64,000 nucleotides of DNA from TPA_inf: Saccharomyces (Eukaryota): positions 896,001-960,000 of the forward strand of contig BK006945.2 of the NCBI GenBank assembly GCA_000146045.2. The letters run 5' to 3'. The notes below the pieces were generated by a model that had not been told where the DNA came from, did no database searches, and worked only from the letters and a program-made list of their open reading frames with translations. A program made the position numbers and the translations under genes. Below are positions 41,541 through 51,978 of the stretch, piece after piece; the stretch's first letter is position 1, and every line of letters begins with the position of its first letter.

Positions 41541-44500
41541 ATGAGTGGGATAAAGAAGGAACCGATTGAATCTGATGAGGTTCCTCAACAAGAGACAAAA
41601 AATAACTTACCTAGTGCACCTTCTGAGATGTCACCCCTTTTCCTAAACAAAAACACACAGAAGGCTATGCAATCTATTGCACCAATATTGGAGGGTTTCA
41701 GTCCTAAGACGTCAGCTAGCGAAAATATGTCTTTGAAATTGCCACCTCCCGGTATTCAAGATGATCACAGTGAAGAGAATCTCACCGTGCATGATACTCT
41801 GCAAAGAACCATAAGCACTGCACTAGGAAACGGAAACAACACCAATACAGTTACAACTTCCGGTTTAAAAAAGGCAGACAGTGAATCAAAGTCAGAAGCT
41901 GATCCTGAGGGGCTCAGCAATTCTAACATAGTCAATGATGCAGATAACATAAATTCCATCTCCAAGACCGGATCGCCCCATTTACCTCAAGGAACAATGG
42001 ACGCTGAGCAGACTAACATGGGAACTAACTCTGTACCTACTTCATCAGCTTCTTCACGCAAATCCTCGACTAGTCATCCCAAACCTAGGCTACCCAAGGT
42101 AGGGAAGATTGGGGTATGTGCAATGGATGCAAAAGTCCTTTCAAAGCCAATGAGACACATTTTGAATCGTTTAATTGAACATGGTGAATTTGAAACTGTC
42201 ATTTTTGGAGATAAGGTGATTCTAGATGAAAGAATAGAGAATTGGCCAACTTGCGACTTTTTGATATCTTTCTTTTCTTCAGGATTTCCCCTAGATAAAG
42301 CAATTAAATACGTCAAGTTACGCAAGCCTTTCATTATCAATGATTTAATAATGCAAAAGATTTTGTGGGACAGGAGATTATGTCTACAAGTATTAGAAGC
42401 CTACAACGTTCCAACACCTCCTAGACTGGAAATCAGTAGAGATGGTGGTCCCCGTGCCAACGAAGAATTAAGGGCAAAATTACGTGAGCATGGCGTAGAA
42501 GTTAAACCCGTTGAAGAACCGGAATGGAAAATGGTTGATGATGATACTTTAGAAGTTGATGGGAAAACCATGACTAAGCCCTTTGTTGAAAAGCCCGTTG
42601 ATGGTGAAGACCACAACATTTATATATACTATCATTCTAAGAACGGAGGAGGCGGTCGTCGTCTATTCCGTAAAGTTGGTAACAAGTCTTCTGAGTTTGA
42701 TCCTACTTTGGTTCATCCTCGTACGGAGGGGTCTTACATTTATGAGCAGTTTATGGATACCGATAATTTCGAAGATGTGAAGGCTTATACGATTGGTGAG
42801 AACTTTTGTCACGCTGAAACTAGGAAATCACCTGTGGTTGATGGTATAGTTAGAAGAAATACTCATGGTAAAGAAGTTAGATATATTACTGAGTTATCAG
42901 ACGAAGAGAAAACCATTGCTGGGAAAGTTTCCAAAGCTTTTTCACAAATGATCTGTGGTTTCGATTTGCTTCGCGTTTCTGGTAAAAGTTACGTCATTGA
43001 TGTTAACGGATTTTCTTTTGTAAAGGATAACAAAGCTTACTATGATTCATGCGCCAATATATTGAGAAGTACCTTCATTGAAGCCAAAAAGAAGATGGAT
43101 ATGGAAAAGAAGAATCTGCCCATTATTCGTGAAGAAAAGGAACAAAAGTGGGTATTCAAAGGACTGGCTATCATTATCCGTCACGCGGACAGAACACCAA
43201 AACAGAAATTCAAACATTCATTCACTTCGCCTATTTTTATATCGTTACTAAAAGGTCACAAAGAAGAAGTTGTCATTCGGAATGTAAATGATTTAAAGAT
43301 TGTTCTTCAGGCCTTAAGAATTGCGTTAGATGAAAAAGCAGGAAATCCAGCTAAAATTAAAGTGTTAGCAAACGCTCTAGAAAAGAAACTGAATTTTCCC
43401 GGTACGAAAATACAATTGAAACCGGTTTTAAATAAAGAGAACGAAGTGGAAAAAGTTCAGTTTATTTTGAAATGGGGTGGTGAACCCACTCATTCTGCCA
43501 AATATCAGGCTACGGAACTCGGAGAGCAAATGAGACAAGATTTTGACCTATTGAATAAGAGCATTCTACAAAACATCAAGATATTTTCATCGTCTGAGAG
43601 ACGTGTTCTTCATACGGCGCAGTACTGGACCAGAGCTCTTTTTGGGGCCGATGAATTAGGTAGCGATGAAATCAGTATTAGAAAGGATCTTTTAGATGAC
43701 AGTAATGCCGCCAAAGATTTAATGGATAAGGTGAAAAAGAAGTTGAAGCCACTTTTAAGAGAGGGTAAGGAAGCTCCCCCACAATTTGCCTGGCCTTCAA
43801 AGATGCCGGAGCCATATTTAGTCATAAAGCGAGTGGTTGAATTGATGAATTACCATAAAAAAATTATGGATAACAACTTTGCTAAAAAGGATGTCAACTC
43901 GATGCAAACAAGATGGTGTACTTCTGAAGATCCTAGTTTGTTTAAGGAAAGGTGGGATAAACTTTTCAAAGAATTCAATAATGCTGAAAAAGTCGATCCT
44001 TCTAAAATTTCTGAATTGTATGATACTATGAAGTATGATGCTCTTCACAACAGGCAGTTCCTAGAGAACATATTTGACCCGGGTCTTCCAAATGAAGCTA
44101 TCGCCGATGAACTCGGCAGTCATTCTTTAGTTGACCGATACCCAATTAACGTTCTCGCCAAAAATAATTTTAAGATAATAGACAGTCATAGCATGAACAA
44201 TTCTGGAAAGAACAGTAGTAATAGTGTTGGGTCGTTAGGATGGGTTCTGGAAAGCGGAAAAACATCTACAGCAAGAAACCCCAAATCTTCTTCTCAATTC
44301 GATGAGCCACGCTTTATGCAGTTGCGGGAGCTGTATAAGCTGGCCAAAGTATTGTTTGATTTTATCTGCCCCAAAGAATATGGTATTTCAGATGCAGAGA
44401 AACTGGATATCGGTTTGTTAACTTCGTTGCCTTTGGCAAAGCAAATACTAAATGATATAGGAGACATGAAAAATAGAGAAACTCCAGCTTGTGTTGCGTA

Positions 44501-44981
44501 CTTCACCAAAGAGTCCCATATTTACACTCTATTGAATATCATATACGAATCTGGTATTCCAATGAGAATCGCTAGAAATGCTTTACCAGAACTAGACTAC
44601 TTGTCGCAGATCACTTTTGAACTTTATGAGAGTACGGATGCTTCTGGTCAAAAATCGCATTCCATTAGACTAAAAATGTCTCCTGGGTGTCATACTCAAG
44701 ATCCGTTAGATGTTCAATTAGATGACAGGCATTATATTAGTTGTATTCCAAAGATTTCCCTGACGAAGCATTTGGATATGGACTATGTTCAACAGAAATT
44801 GAGAAACAAATTTACCAGGGTCATTATGCCTCCGAAATTTACACCAGTAAACATTACGAGCCCCAACTTGAGTTTCCAGAAACGCAAAACCAGAAGAAAG
44901 TCGGTATCTGTTGAGAAGTTGAAACGTCCTGCCTCGTCCGGATCTTCATCATCTACCTCCGTTAACAAGACATTAGATTAG
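41541..44981 (+). CDS. VIP1: VIP1, an inositol pyrophosphate (PP-InsP5) kinase with an ATP-grasp kinase domain plus a histidine-acid-phosphatase-like domain, 1146 aa from the ATG at 41541
   Basis: N-terminal RimK/ATP-grasp-like kinase region and a central histidine-phosphatase signature (IIRHADRTPKQK). The ORF is open from 41529 (1150 aa); I recall 1146 aa, which corresponds to the second ATG. Confidence 0.9.
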   Translation: MSGIKKEPIESDEVPQQETKNNLPSAPSEMSPLFLNKNTQKAMQSIAPILEGFSPKTSASENMSLKLPPPGIQDDHSEENLTVHDTLQRTISTALGNGNNTNTVTTSGLKKADSESKSEADPEGLSNSNIVNDADNINSISKTGSPHLPQGTMDAEQTNMGTNSVPTSSASSRKSSTSHPKPRLPKVGKIGVCAMDAKVLSKPMRHILNRLIEHGEFETVIFGDKVILDERIENWPTCDFLISFFSSGFPLDKAIKYVKLRKPFIINDLIMQKILWDRRLCLQVLEAYNVPTPPRLEISRDGGPRANEELRAKLREHGVEVKPVEEPEWKMVDDDTLEVDGKTMTKPFVEKPVDGEDHNIYIYYHSKNGGGGRRLFRKVGNKSSEFDPTLVHPRTEGSYIYEQFMDTDNFEDVKAYTIGENFCHAETRKSPVVDGIVRRNTHGKEVRYITELSDEEKTIAGKVSKAFSQMICGFDLLRVSGKSYVIDVNGFSFVKDNKAYYDSCANILRSTFIEAKKKMDMEKKNLPIIREEKEQKWVFKGLAIIIRHADRTPKQKFKHSFTSPIFISLLKGHKEEVVIRNVNDLKIVLQALRIALDEKAGNPAKIKVLANALEKKLNFPGTKIQLKPVLNKENEVEKVQFILKWGGEPTHSAKYQATELGEQMRQDFDLLNKSILQNIKIFSSSERRVLHTAQYWTRALFGADELGSDEISIRKDLLDDSNAAKDLMDKVKKKLKPLLREGKEAPPQFAWPSKMPEPYLVIKRVVELMNYHKKIMDNNFAKKDVNSMQTRWCTSEDPSLFKERWDKLFKEFNNAEKVDPSKISELYDTMKYDALHNRQFLENIFDPGLPNEAIADELGSHSLVDRYPINVLAKNNFKIIDSHSMNNSGKNSSNSVGSLGWVLESGKTSTARNPKSSSQFDEPRFMQLRELYKLAKVLFDFICPKEYGISDAEKLDIGLLTSLPLAKQILNDIGDMKNRETPACVAYFTKESHIYTLLNIIYESGIPMRIARNALPELDYLSQITFELYESTDASGQKSHSIRLKMSPGCHTQDPLDVQLDDRHYISCIPKISLTKHLDMDYVQQKLRNKFTRVIMPPKFTPVNITSPNLSFQKRKTRRKSVSVEKLKRPASSGSSSSTSVNKTLD

Positions 44982-45067
44982 TGATCACACCCAATTTTTA
45001 ATTTAGTAACCCAAAACTAAATAAGTATTTACTCAACTTTTTTTTAAAAAAAAAAAACTTAATTGAA

Positions 45068-45121
45068 TTTTGCTCGCGATCTTTAGGTCCGGAGTTTTCG
45101 TTGAACCCTTAGACGAGCAAA
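45068..45121 (+). promoter_or_regulatory. CTR3 upstream region with two inverted Mac1 copper-response elements (CuREs) and, further downstream, a TATA box at 45171-45179
   Basis: TTTGCTCG at 45068-45075 and GAGCAAA at 45115-45121 (reverse complement TTTGCTC) match the CuRE core TTTGC(T/G)C(A/G). TATATAAAG lies at 45171-45179, immediately 5' of the Ty2 LTR. Confidence 0.65.
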
Positions 45122-45191
45122 TTAGCGCCATAAGGATATGCGTCAGAGCACATTAATTAGTGACATATACCTATATAAAGAGCAACCTTCT

Positions 45192-45523
45192 TGTTGGAAT
45201 AAAAATCAACTATCATCTACTAACTAGTATTTACGTTACTAGTATATTATCATATACGGTGTTAGAAGATGACGCAAATGATGAGAAATAGTCATCTAAA
45301 TTAGTGGAAGCTGAAACGCAAGGATTGATAATGTAATAGGATCAATGAATATTAACATATAAAATGATGATAATAATATTTATAGAATTGTGTAGAATTG
45401 CAGATTCCCTTTTATGGATTCCTAAATCCTCGAGGAGAACTTCTAGTATATCTACATACCTAATATTATTGCCTTATTAAAAATGGAATCCCAACAATTA
45501 CATCAAAATCCACATTCTCTTCA
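45192..45523 (+). repeat. Ty2 5' LTR (delta), 332 bp
   Basis: Starts TGTTGGAATA and ends CTCTTCA. Contains the TYA ATG at 45483. By eye it is identical to the 3' LTR. Confidence 0.93.
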
Positions 45524-46799
45524 TGGTAGCGCCTATGCTTCGGTTACTTCTAAGGAAGTCCCATCAAATCAAGATCCGTTAGCCGTTTCAGCTTCCAATT
45601 TACCGGAATTTGATAGAGATTCCACTAAGGTTAATTCTCAACAAGAGACAACACCTGGGACATCAGCTGTTCCAGAGAACCATCATCATGTCTCTCCTCA
45701 ACCTGCTTCAGTACCACCTCCACAGAATGGACAGTACCAACAGCACGGCATGATGACCCCAAACAAAGCTATGGCCTCTAACTGGGCACATTACCAACAA
45801 CCATCTATGATGACGTGTTCACATTATCAAACGTCACCTGCGTATTATCAACCGGACCCACACTATCCGTTGCCACAGTATATCCCACCACTGAGTACTT
45901 CCTCACCTGATCCAATCGATTTAAAAAATCAACACTCTGAAATACCTCAAGCTAAGACAAAGGTGGGAAATAACGTCTTACCACCACACACTTTAACATC
46001 AGAAGAAAACTTTTCTACATGGGTTAAATTTTACATCAGATTTTTGAAGAACTCTAATCTCGGTGACATCATTCCAAATGACCAGGGTGAAATCAAAAGA
46101 CAAATGACTTATGAAGAACATGCGTATATATACAATACCTTCCAAGCATTTGCCCCATTTCATTTATTGCCAACATGGGTAAAACAAATTTTAGAAATTA
46201 ATTATGCTGACATCCTTACAGTCCTTTGTAAAAGTGTGTCCAAAATGCAAACTAACAATCAAGAATTAAAGGATTGGATAGCTCTTGCCAACCTTGAGTA
46301 CGACGGAAGTACATCTGCTGATACATTTGAAATTACAGTCAGTACGATCATTCAGAGGCTAAAAGAAAACAATATCAATGTTAGCGACAGATTGGCCTGT
46401 CAACTAATACTTAAAGGTCTATCCGGTGACTTCAAATACCTACGTAATCAATATCGTACCAAAACGAACATGAAACTTTCCCAATTATTCGCTGAAATTC
46501 AATTAATATATGACGAAAATAAAATCATGAATCTAAATAAACCGTCCCAATACAAACAACACAGCGAATACAAAAATGTTTCTCGCACATCTCCAAACAC
46601 GACTAACACAAAGGTTACAACTCGTAATTATCATAGAACAAATAGTTCAAAACCAAGAGCAGCAAAAGCTCACAATATTGCTACATCTAGTAAATTCTCA
46701 AGGGTGAACAATGATCACATTAATGAATCAACCGTTTCATCACAATACTTAAGCGATGACAACGAACTTAGTCTTAGGCCAGCAACAGAAAGAATCTAA
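45483..46799 (+). CDS. Ty2 TYA (Gag capsid protein), 438 aa
   Basis: [26 protein letters not shown]...[10 protein letters not shown] 438-aa Gag with the Ty2-type sequence (Ty1 Gag is 440 aa and differs N-terminally). Confidence 0.93.
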
Positions 46800-49700
46800 G
46801 CCAACACACACAATAGACTCGAATGACGAACTACCTGATCACCTTCTTATTGATTCAGGAGCTTCGCAAACGCTTGTCAGATCAGCCCATTATTTACACC
46901 ATGCAACACCCAATTCTGAAATAAACATAGTCGATGCTCAAAAACAAGACATTCCTATAAATGCCATTGGTAATCTTCACTTCAACTTTCAGAACGGCAC
47001 CAAAACATCAATAAAAGCACTACACACACCAAACATAGCCTATGATCTATTAAGTTTGAGTGAGCTGGCTAACCAAAATATTACTGCCTGCTTTACCAGA
47101 AACACTTTAGAAAGATCGGATGGTACAGTACTAGCTCCCATAGTCAAACATGGAGACTTTTACTGGTTATCTAAAAAATACCTAATTCCTTCGCACATTT
47201 CAAAGCTAACAATAAACAACGTCAACAAAAGCAAAAGCGTAAATAAATATCCATATCCGTTAATACATCGAATGCTTGGACATGCTAACTTCCGAAGTAT
47301 TCAGAAGTCTCTTAAGAAGAATGCAGTTACATATTTGAAGGAATCGGATATTGAATGGTCTAACGCTAGCACATATCAATGTCCTGACTGTCTAATCGGC
47401 AAAAGCACGAAACATAGACATGTCAAAGGATCACGACTAAAGTACCAAGAATCATATGAGCCTTTTCAGTACTTGCATACCGATATATTTGGTCCTGTAC
47501 ATCACTTACCGAAAAGTGCACCTTCTTACTTTATATCGTTTACAGATGAGAAAACCAGATTCCAATGGGTGTACCCATTACACGACCGTCGTGAAGAATC
47601 TATCCTCAATGTTTTTACATCGATATTAGCATTTATTAAGAACCAATTCAATGCTCGCGTTCTAGTTATCCAGATGGATCGTGGCTCCGAGTACACTAAC
47701 AAAACTCTTCATAAGTTCTTTACGAACAGAGGTATTACTGCATGCTATACAACCACGGCAGATTCTAGAGCACACGGTGTCGCTGAACGATTAAATCGTA
47801 CTTTATTAAACGATTGTCGCACACTGCTTCATTGCAGTGGTCTACCAAATCATCTATGGTTCTCAGCAGTCGAATTTTCTACTATAATCAGAAATTCATT
47901 AGTCTCACCAAAAAACGATAAATCTGCAAGACAACATGCAGGTTTAGCTGGACTGGACATTACTACTATACTACCTTTCGGTCAACCGGTTATAGTTAAC
48001 AACCATAATCCCGACTCGAAAATACATCCTCGTGGCATTCCAGGTTACGCCTTACATCCGTCACGAAACTCTTATGGCTATATTATCTATCTTCCATCAT
48101 TAAAAAAGACAGTAGATACTACCAATTACGTTATATTACAAGACAACCAATCCAAATTGGACCAATTCAATTATGATACACTCACCTTTGATGATGATCT
48201 CAATCGTTTAACAGCCCATAACCAATCTTTTATTGAACAAAATGAAACAGAGCAGTCATATGATCAAAATACAGAATCTGATCATGACTATCAATCGGAG
48301 ATTGAAATAAACTCTGATCCTCTAGTGAACGACTTCTCGTCCCAATCAATGAACCCCTTACAATTAGACCACGAACCAGTCCAAAAAGTACGTGCACCAA
48401 AAGAAGTTGATGCCGACATATCTGAATACAATATTCTTCCATCTCCTGTACGATCTCGTACACCCCATATCATTAATAAAGAGAGTACCGAAATGGGTGG
48501 TACCATTGAATCAGATACTACTTCACCTAGACACTCGTCTACCTTCACTGCACGAAACCAAAAGCGACCTGGTAGTCCCAATGATATGATTGATTTGACC
48601 TCACAGGATAGAGTTAATTATGGACTTGAAAACATCAAAACTACACGTTTGGGTGGTACGGAGGAACCATATATTCAACGAAATAGTGATACAAATATCA
48701 AATACAGGACTACAAATAGTACGCCCTCAATAGATGACCGTTCGTCCAACAGTGAATCCACTACTCCCATCATCTCCATAGAAACAAAGGCTGTATGTGA
48801 TAATACACCCTCCATTGATACGGATCCGCCAGAATATCGATCTTCTGACCATGCGACTCCTAATATAATGCCTGACAAATCCTCAAAAAATGTTACGGCT
48901 GATTCTATTCTTGACGACCTCCCACTTCCTGACTTAACCCATAAATCTCCTACGGACACTTCTGATGTTTCAAAAGATATTCCACACATACACTCTCGTC
49001 AGACTAATTCCAGTTTGGGTGGTATGGATGATTCTAATGTTCTGACTACTACCAAAAGTAAGAAAAGATCATTAGAAGATAATGAAACTGAAATTGAGGT
49101 ATCCCGAGACACATGGAATAATAAGAATATGAGAAGTCTGGAACCACCAAGATCGAAGAAACGCATAAATTTAATTGCAGCAATAAAAGGAGTGAAATCG
49201 ATCAAACCAGTTCGAACGACCTTAAGATATGATGAAGCAATTACATATAATAAAGACAACAAAGAAAAAGACAGATATGTTGAAGCTTATCATAAAGAAA
49301 TTAGCCAACTATTGAAAATGAACACTTGGGATACAAACAAATATTATGATAGAAATGACATAGATCCTAAAAAAGTAATAAACTCAATGTTTATATTTAA
49401 CAAGAAACGTGATGGTACACACAAAGCTAGATTTGTTGCAAGAGGCGACATTCAACACCCCGATACATATGATTCTGATATGCAATCCAATACCGTACAT
49501 CACTATGCACTGATGACGTCACTGTCAATCGCATTAGACAACGACTATTATATCACACAGCTGGACATATCCTCTGCTTACTTATATGCTGATATCAAAG
49601 AAGAATTATACATAAGACCTCCACCACATTTAGGTTTGAATGATAAATTACTACGTTTGAGAAAATCACTCTATGGTTTGAAACAAAGTGGTGCAAACTG

Positions 49701-50796
49701 GTATGAAACCATTAAATCATATTTAATAAATTGTTGCGACATGCAAGAAGTTCGCGGATGGTCATGCGTATTTAAGAATAGTCAAGTAACAATTTGCTTA
49801 TTCGTTGATGATATGATATTATTCAGCAAAGACTTAAATGCAAATAAGAAAATCATAACAACACTCAAGAAACAATACGATACAAAGATAATAAATCTGG
49901 GTGAAAGAGATAACGAAATTCAGTACGACATACTTGGATTAGAGATCAAATATCAAAGAAGCAAGTACATGAAATTAGGTATGGAAAAATCCTTGACAGA
50001 AAAATTACCCAAACTAAACGTACCTTTGAACCCAAAAGGAAAGAAACTTAGAGCTCCAGGTCAACCAGGTCATTATATAGACCAGGATGAACTAGAAATA
50101 GATGAAGATGAATACAAAGAGAAGGTACATGAAATGCAAAAGTTGATTGGTCTAGCTTCATATGTTGGATATAAATTTAGATTTGACTTACTATACTACA
50201 TCAACACACTTGCTCAACATATACTATTCCCCTCTAGACAAGTTTTAGACATGACATATGAGTTAATACAATTCATGTGGGACACTAGAGATAAACAATT
50301 AATATGGCACAAAAACAAACCTACCAAGCCAGATAATAAACTAGTCGCAATAAGCGATGCTTCATATGGTAACCAACCATATTACAAGTCACAAATTGGT
50401 AACATTTTCCTACTCAACGGAAAAGTGATTGGAGGAAAGTCGACAAAGGCTTCGTTAACATGCACTTCAACTACAGAAGCAGAAATACACGCAGTCAGTG
50501 AAGCTATACCGCTATTGAATAACCTCAGTCACCTTGTGCAAGAACTTAACAAGAAACCAATTATTAAAGGCTTACTTACTGATAGTAGATCAACGATCAG
50601 TATAATTAAGTCTACAAATGAAGAGAAATTTAGAAACAGATTTTTTGGCACAAAGGCAATGAGACTTAGAGATGAAGTATCAGGTAATAATTTATACGTA
50701 TACTACATCGAGACCAAGAAGAACATTGCTGATGTGATGACAAAACCTCTTCCGATAAAAACATTTAAACTATTAACAAACAAATGGATTCATTAG
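46756..50796 (+). CDS. Ty2 TYB (Pol: protease, integrase, reverse transcriptase/RNase H), expressed as a Gag-Pol fusion by +1 frameshift at CTT-AGG-C (46773-46779)
   Basis: The +1 ORF overlaps the TYA end by 44 nt. Protease DSGAS, integrase HHCC zinc finger and DD35E, and RT YxDD (FVDDM) are all present and uninterrupted. Confidence 0.93.
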
Positions 50797-50818
50797 ATCT
50801 ATTACATTATGGGTGGTA

Positions 50819-51150
50819 TGTTGGAATAAAAATCAACTATCATCTACTAACTAGTATTTACGTTACTAGTATATTATCATATACGGTGTTAGAAGATGAC
50901 GCAAATGATGAGAAATAGTCATCTAAATTAGTGGAAGCTGAAACGCAAGGATTGATAATGTAATAGGATCAATGAATATTAACATATAAAATGATGATAA
51001 TAATATTTATAGAATTGTGTAGAATTGCAGATTCCCTTTTATGGATTCCTAAATCCTCGAGGAGAACTTCTAGTATATCTACATACCTAATATTATTGCC
51101 TTATTAAAAATGGAATCCCAACAATTACATCAAAATCCACATTCTCTTCA
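50819..51150 (+). repeat. Ty2 3' LTR (delta), 332 bp
   Basis: Preceded by the polypurine tract GGGTGGTA and followed by the target-site duplication CTTCT. Confidence 0.93.
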
Positions 51151-51252
51151 CTTCTCCGATAGACTTGTAATTTATCTTATTTCATTTCCTAACACTTTGA
51201 TCGAAGAAGAGGGATAACAACAGACGAAAACACATTTAAGGGCTATACAAAG

Positions 51253-51978
51253 ATGAATATGGGAGGCAGTAGCAGCACTGCTGCCAAAAAAGCGACTTGT
51301 AAAATATCGATGTTATGGAATTGGTATACCATTGACACCTGCTTCATTGCCAGATCTTGGAGAAATGACACCAAAGGAAAATTTGCTGGTTCTTGCATCG
51401 GCTGTTTTGCGCTTGTGGTGGTAGCTCAATGGCTTACTCGTTTTTCAAGGCAATTTGACGTAGAGCTATTAAAAAGACAGAAAATAAAGCATTTAGCTAG
51501 TTACTCGCCAGAGGAGTACGTTGTCAAATGTGGAGAAGAGGATGCTAAATCTGATATAGAAGAACTACAAGGCTTTTACAACGAACCAAGCTGGAAAACA
51601 ACTTTAATTTCCTTACAAAAAAGTTTCATTTATAGTTTTTACGTTTGGGGTCCAAGGAGATTGAACGAGCCAGAAGACGACCTGTTAAAGAAGGTCCTAT
51701 CATGCTGTACATTAATAACGCCAGTGGATTTGTACCCAACTTTTTTGGATCACATGATAAGAGTTACTATTTTCGTATTACAGTGGGGGTTATCTTATAT
51801 CATCATGCTGCTGTTCATGTACTATAACGGCTATATCATTATTAGTTGTTTAATAGGTGCTATCGTTGGTCGTTTCATATTTTGCTATGAACCTCTAGGC
51901 TCATTGGGTGCTAATGGATCAGCCCAGGGTACAGTGAGTTATGATAAAGAGAGTGATGATCGCAAATGCTGCTTGTAG
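51253..51978 (+). CDS. CTR3: CTR3, a high-affinity copper transporter, 241 aa
   Basis: 241-aa ORF MNMGGSSSTAAKKATCKISMLWNWYTID... with a Cys-rich N-terminus and three transmembrane segments including a GxxxG-type helix. The ATG is 103 bp downstream of the Ty2 3' LTR. Confidence 0.9.
   Translation: MNMGGSSSTAAKKATCKISMLWNWYTIDTCFIARSWRNDTKGKFAGSCIGCFALVVVAQWLTRFSRQFDVELLKRQKIKHLASYSPEEYVVKCGEEDAKSDIEELQGFYNEPSWKTTLISLQKSFIYSFYVWGPRRLNEPEDDLLKKVLSCCTLITPVDLYPTFLDHMIRVTIFVLQWGLSYIIMLLFMYYNGYIIISCLIGAIVGRFIFCYEPLGSLGANGSAQGTVSYDKESDDRKCCL

Follow-up and report, generated by a model that had tools for sequence, protein, structure and literature searches.

The 64-kb window analyzed here (the whole stretch of contig BK006945.2 of the Saccharomyces assembly GCA_000146045.2, positions 896,001 to 960,000, forward strand) carries, in this order, the kinase/phosphatase gene VIP1, a full-length Ty2 retrotransposon, and the copper transporter gene CTR3. 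We find that the Ty2 almost certainly separates an intact CTR3 gene from its intact, conserved promoter, comprising two copper-responsive elements (CuREs) and a TATA box. We established directly how the locus is built, what its parts are, that an empty site exists, that the promoter is conserved, and that the CTR3 open reading frame (ORF) is intact; the loss of regulated CTR3 expression and the dependence on CTR1 are taken from the literature.

Anatomy of the VIP1-CTR3 locus

The features of the locus are given below, with coordinates as positions in the window. Long terminal repeats are abbreviated as LTRs and amino acids as aa.

41541..44981, + strand: VIP1, inositol polyphosphate kinase/phosphatase, 1,146 aa (ORF; Pfam PPIP5K2_N, RimK, and His_Phos_2)
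45038..45057, unstranded: T8A12 homopolymer tract, located 5' of the distal CuRE and variable in length among Saccharomyces species (alignment columns 63-82)
45069..45076, + strand: distal CuRE, TTTGCTCG, which fits the Mac1 consensus TTTGC(T/G)C(A/G)
45114..45121, - strand: proximal CuRE, TTTGCTCG on the minus strand (CGAGCAAA on the plus strand), the exact reverse complement of the distal CuRE
45172..45179, + strand: native CTR3 TATA box, TATATAAA, 12 bp upstream of the Ty2 5' LTR
45187..45191, unstranded: target-site duplication CTTCT, left copy, present once in empty sites
45192..45523, + strand: Ty2 5' LTR, with TATAAAA (LTR position 167), CTCGAG (238-243), and the start codon of TYA (292)
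45483..46799, + strand: TYA (Gag), 438 aa (ORF; Pfam TYA, E = 2.9e-205)
45524..45533, + strand: primer-binding site TGGTAGCGCC, seen in the sequence to abut the 5' LTR; from what is known of Ty1/Ty2, it should be complementary to the 3' end of the initiator tRNA-Met
46756..50796, + strand: TYB (Pol) frame, 1,346-aa ORF (protease, integrase, reverse transcriptase, and RNase H)
46773..46779, + strand: CTTAGGC, heptamer of the +1 programmed frameshift, in the TYA frame
50810..50818, + strand: TGGGTGGTA, seen in the sequence to abut the 3' LTR; taken by us, again from Ty1/Ty2 knowledge, to be the polypurine tract
50819..51150, + strand: Ty2 3' LTR, a 332/332 copy of the 5' LTR that includes the TATAAAA and CTCGAG region
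51110..51217, + strand: 35-codon upstream ORF (uORF), running from the LTR copy of the TYA ATG into the CTR3 leader
51151..51155, unstranded: target-site duplication CTTCT, right copy (confirmed by script)
51253..51978, + strand: CTR3 coding sequence, intact, 241 aa (ORF; Pfam Ctr)

The Ty2 extends from 45192 to 51150 on the + strand and measures 5,959 bp, as read from the sequence and checked by script. Its LTRs are direct repeats of 332 bp each that begin and end with TGTTGG...TCTTCA (TG...CA) and are identical at all 332 positions. Because the LTRs are identical, the insertion is likely to be recent. In TYB, the Pfam matches Pol_BBD, gag_pre-integrs, and rve (235-335) all precede RVT_2 (872-1046), which is the copia-type order. 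The TYA product matches UniProt P0C2J4 (“Transposon Ty2-LR1 Gag polyprotein”) exactly, and when A46776 is skipped, the resulting 1,770-aa Gag-Pol is identical throughout to UniProt P0C2J3 (Ty2-LR1 of S288C). By its proteins, the element is thus assigned to Ty2, a Ty1/copia-type LTR retrotransposon (Pseudoviridae), and not to Ty1; this assignment is by identity to the Ty2-LR1 entries, which were the references compared. The element is complete, without visible defect, and apparently intact. These results bear out the earlier note on this DNA, which had placed a 5.96-kb Ty2 directly 3' of the CuREs and TATA box.

The ORF listing also contains a 104-aa antisense ORF within TYB (48675-48989, - strand), which comes without evidence of being a gene. 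Separately, the cluster of proteins related to those of the Ty2 includes entries assigned to Streptococcus uberis (GAA5351190.1 and GAA5349144.1/WP_461254127.1) and to Parabacteroides merdae (MTT11453.1). These bacterial entries most likely represent contamination of the respective assemblies with yeast DNA.

The CTR3 product matches the Pfam family Ctr (PF04145) with E = 5.8e-38 over profile positions 1-151 of 151. The 241-aa protein is an exact match both to CTR3 of S288C and to Ctr3 of Ty-free strains, in agreement with the identification of the downstream gene in the earlier note. The start codon had also been correctly located at 51253, position +103 from the Ty2, with 102 nt intervening. 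We are highly confident that the CTR3 gene (YLR411W, chromosome XII) of the window is the S288C allele. Elsewhere, Ctr3p of strain FostersB is annotated at 222 aa instead of 241 aa, which may reflect a truncated allele or a difference in annotation.

The gene order VIP1-CTR3-BER1, with BER1 downstream of CTR3, is kept in four Saccharomyces species. For the VIP1 start, we followed other strains, in which a 1,146-aa gene is called at this position; the VIP1-CTR3 spacer begins at the VIP1 stop. RNA polymerase III genes are the usual targets of Ty1 and Ty2. No tRNA genes were detected in the 64-kb window (ARAGORN), so the Ty2 lies away from these usual targets. A BLAST search of the window with the LTR turned up neither solo LTRs nor any other Ty fragment.

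The empty site and the native promoter

Empty sites were examined among 16 S. cerevisiae loci, drawn from contigs that encode either the exact Ctr3 protein or a second Ctr3 allele. Fifteen of these loci, all from other S. cerevisiae strains, have an empty site with a single CTTCT, as the earlier note had predicted for strains lacking the Ty2. In the nine that encode the exact Ctr3 protein, the VIP1-CTR3 spacer is 307 bp long and matches the window minus the Ty2 and one CTTCT at 307 of 307 positions, with the junction reading ...AGCAACCTTCTCCGATAG... in all nine. The six loci with the second Ctr3 protein allele are also Ty-free, and their 306-bp spacers keep both CuREs and the TATA box. Because empty-site loci encode the same protein, the CTR3 coding sequence is both intact and common to strains with an undisrupted promoter.

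The remaining locus (L008, from the independent assembly GCA_016858165.1) has a Ty2 at the same site and a VIP1-CTR3 spacer of 6,271 bp. Over these 6,271 bp, it differs from the window by one mismatch, at 48238 in TYB (C in the window, A in L008). A solo-LTR allele, which would have a spacer of about 644 bp, was not seen among the 16 S. cerevisiae loci; their spacers measure 306, 307, or 6,271 bp.

Upstream of the insertion, the two CuRE octamers are inverted relative to each other, and their starts lie 45 bp apart. The inverted pair described in the earlier note is thus present, with the coordinates of its first member moved by one base, from 45068-75 to 45069-76. GAGCAAA was correctly found at 45115-21 and is part of the full octamer CGAGCAAA at 45114-21. 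The TATA box is likewise present; the previously given start, 45171, takes in the preceding C. By motif, two CuREs upstream of a TATA box correspond to a Mac1-type promoter, with Mac1 binding and copper-repressible activation drawn from the literature. CTR3 is listed as a Mac1 target (PMC9674712) and is among four such targets whose promoters hold two perfect copies of the consensus (PMC3514956). The promoters of CTR1, FRE1, and FRE7 in the Mac1 regulon likewise have two perfect TTTGC(T/G)C(A/G) sites upstream of a TATA box. Unlike in those genes, the CTR3 CuREs in the window are cut off from their gene and face the U3 of the Ty2 LTR.

Conservation of the spacer varies sharply from region to region. 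We aligned the VIP1-CTR3 spacers of S. cerevisiae (empty allele), S. paradoxus, S. eubayanus, and S. uvarum. Invariant columns make up 53% of the alignment upstream of the first CuRE, 82% from the first CuRE through TATATAAAGAG, and 26% downstream of the insertion point. The distal CuRE core TTTGCTC, the proximal GAGCAAA, and the TATA sequence ATATAAAGAG are invariant in all four species, and the variant of the proximal octamer in S. uvarum, TGAGCAAA, is within the consensus.

The Ty2 is co-oriented with CTR3 and entered 12 bp beyond the TATA box. In total, the insertion lengthens the locus by 5,964 bp, made up of the 5,959-bp Ty2 and the 5-bp duplication. As a result, the distance from the proximal CuRE to the CTR3 ATG is 6,132 bp, compared with 168 bp in the empty allele, and that from the TATA box to the ATG is 6,074 bp, compared with 110 bp. 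Of the 102 nt between the last LTR base and the CTR3 ATG, only the 97 nt after the right CTTCT are native sequence.

Transcription start sites for RNA polymerase II in yeast lie roughly 40-120 bp downstream of the TATA box. With just 12 bp separating the TATA box from the insertion, little room is left for a start site ahead of the Ty2, and the native CTR3 start sites are expected to lie downstream of it. Upstream activating sequences and TATA boxes in yeast act over short distances, and activators perform poorly over several kilobases. From the displaced CuREs, Mac1 would thus no longer be able to drive initiation at the start sites of CTR3. The 3' LTR is where Ty transcripts end, and transcription derived from the Ty2 would be expected to stop mostly there. 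The outcome would be a loss of CTR3 induction under copper starvation, with an intact coding sequence left at low, unregulated expression.

Expression of the Ty2 allele and alternative explanations

The CTR3::Ty2 allele is already known in the literature, and its defining sequence features all match the window. It is reported to have been first described by Knight et al. in 1996 (Genes Dev 10:1917), to whom most later papers on the allele refer. The locus, element, and orientation are the same as in the S288C allele, the proteins agree to the residue, and the cited phenotype also matches; no differences are detectable in a comparison that covers these features. The earlier note's attribution of the locus to the S288C-lineage CTR3::Ty2 allele thus agrees with both the protein identities and the literature description.

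S288C is reported to have no CTR3 copper response (PMC3514956), and CTR3 expression is described as abolished in BY4741 (PMC7956333; PMC11747415; bioRxiv 10.1101/350652). Other reports state that the copper-dependent regulation of CTR3 is lost (PMC2515631), or that, owing to the Ty2, CTR3 expression is abolished or not copper-responsive in S288C/BY4741 (bioRxiv 10.1101/2021.06.10.447839). By RNA sequencing, a BY-derived strain expresses CTR3 at a far lower level than a Ty-free one (PMC3484046). BY4741 has about 5-fold less CTR3 mRNA than GRA2, a Ty-free strain, and trans-acting factors are reported to contribute to this gap as well (PMC2835564). In the same study, deletion of the Ty raised CTR3 mRNA 2.5-fold and improved growth at high pH, and LTR-LTR excision at CTR3 was repeatedly recovered under alkaline selection (PMC2835564). 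We also considered Ty-mediated activation of CTR3 and rejected it, given that the Ty2 is co-oriented with CTR3 and that the literature reports reduced expression.

We found no sequence in the window that contradicts a separation of CTR3 from its promoter by the Ty2. Several points nevertheless weigh against it or limit it. That the Ty2 lies between the TATA box and the start of transcription is a reading of the geometry. The CuRE consensus is not enriched across the window, with seven matches where 9.3 are expected. BY4741 still gives a CTR3 signal by reverse transcription PCR, and silencing is thus not absolute (PMC2835564). One paper ascribes this residual CTR3 expression to the transposon promoter. 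The earlier note had described CTR3 as silenced; the loss of its copper and Mac1 response stands in the literature, while low residual expression remains (PMC2835564). A more fitting description is that CTR3 is uncoupled from Mac1 and keeps a low level of expression.

One alternative is that CTR3 is rewired and not off, with most of its mRNA starting at a promoter in the 3' LTR (around CTCGAG at 51056) and following Ty-type regulation. Such an mRNA would have a chimeric leader of about 194 nt, in which the uORF at 51110-51217 would lower translation and possibly make the transcript a target of nonsense-mediated decay (NMD). The 3' LTR repeats the 5' LTR perfectly, including TATAAAA and the CTCGAG region, and the uORF exists and is out of frame with CTR3. 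From general knowledge of Ty1 and Ty2, strong Ty transcription needs activating sequences inside TYA, and the 3' LTR is without these downstream. In favor of rewiring, CTR3 mRNA remains detectable in BY4741 (PMC2835564), and global surveys list CTR3 among candidate NMD targets (PMC9674712), although the support from those surveys depends on the strain backgrounds used. We regard rewiring as possible but on the unlikely side; it would in any case refine the explanation by Ty2 separation, as copper regulation is lost either way.

Two further alternatives call the separation itself into question. If the CuRE-like octamers were chance matches and the true control elements of CTR3 lay elsewhere, the Ty2 would separate nothing. 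Along with the lack of enrichment noted above, a non-overlapping CuRE pair within 60 bp occurs somewhere in 7% of Markov-simulated 64-kb sequences, and a pair in the same +/- arrangement occurs in about 2%; the simulation was limited to non-overlapping pairs, as TTTGCGCAAA holds overlapping matches on both strands. However, hardly any position in the octamers or in the spacer between them varies among four Saccharomyces species, while their flanks diverge. We consider the pair to stand above chance because of this near-invariance and because of its position in the roughly 210 bp upstream of the TATA box of a Ctr-family gene, and within 110 bp of that box. The two perfect sites reported for CTR3 also argue against coincidence (PMC3514956), and the only native sequence left between the right CTTCT and the ATG is 97 nt long and poorly conserved. 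Chance matches are thus highly improbable as an explanation. Ty elements are multi-copy and a common source of mis-assembly, and the Ty2 junctions could in principle be a repeat-induced mis-join. Against this, the 5-bp duplication is perfect, removal of the Ty2 and one CTTCT restores the empty site of other strains exactly, and an independent assembly has the same structure with a single mismatch. Furthermore, the Gag-Pol is recorded as Ty2-LR1 on a 1,078,177-bp contig, and several laboratories have observed the insertion experimentally (PMC7956333; PMC3484046; PMC2835564). The probability of an assembly artefact is thus negligible.

The insertion may also have created two chimeric transcription units. 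Because the LTR contains the TYA start codon (position 292), a uORF opens in the 3' LTR; it ends 35 nt ahead of the CTR3 ATG. Transcripts initiated within the 3' LTR, or running through it, would all carry this uORF, and in an LTR-initiated CTR3 mRNA, it would be a potential trigger of NMD. This could be connected with the appearance of CTR3 in the NMD-target surveys. At the opposite end of the Ty2, the CuREs and TATA box left orphaned by the insertion (45069-45300 region) face the U3 of the 5' LTR, and eight ATGs precede the TYA start. We speculate that these orphaned elements might drive a copper-starvation-inducible, Mac1-dependent read-in transcript from the U3 of Ty2-LR1; a search of the literature for Ty2 with Mac1 and copper returned nothing on such a transcript. 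That the locus yields both a Mac1-dependent Ty2 read-in RNA and a 3'-LTR-initiated, uORF-bearing, NMD-prone CTR3 mRNA is a tentative and somewhat doubtful proposal.

Implications of the CTR3::Ty2 allele

Classical Ty insertions in a promoter include his4-912/917. A comparable case in the S288C lineage is HAP1, which carries a Ty1 at its 3' end and is named beside CTR3 in one paper (PMC2515631). In these alleles, as at CTR3, a Ty1/copia LTR element disturbs the expression of an otherwise intact gene. The HAP1 Ty1 alters the coding end of a regulator, whereas the CTR3 Ty2 changes promoter geometry only and leaves the ORF untouched. The CTR3 insertion can also revert by LTR-LTR recombination (PMC2835564).

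The CTR3 allele matters practically and not as a discovery. It leaves S288C/BY strains reliant on CTR1 for high-affinity copper uptake, which shapes how ctr1-delta phenotypes are read, and it confounds comparisons of expression across strains and species (PMC3556494; PMC3514956). As a revertible insertion, it is a quantitative trait locus for alkaline tolerance (PMC2835564), and it has been named as a disadvantage of using S288C as the chassis in synthetic genome work (PMC11747415). The locus is a textbook case of a transposon parting an intact gene from an intact, conserved promoter.

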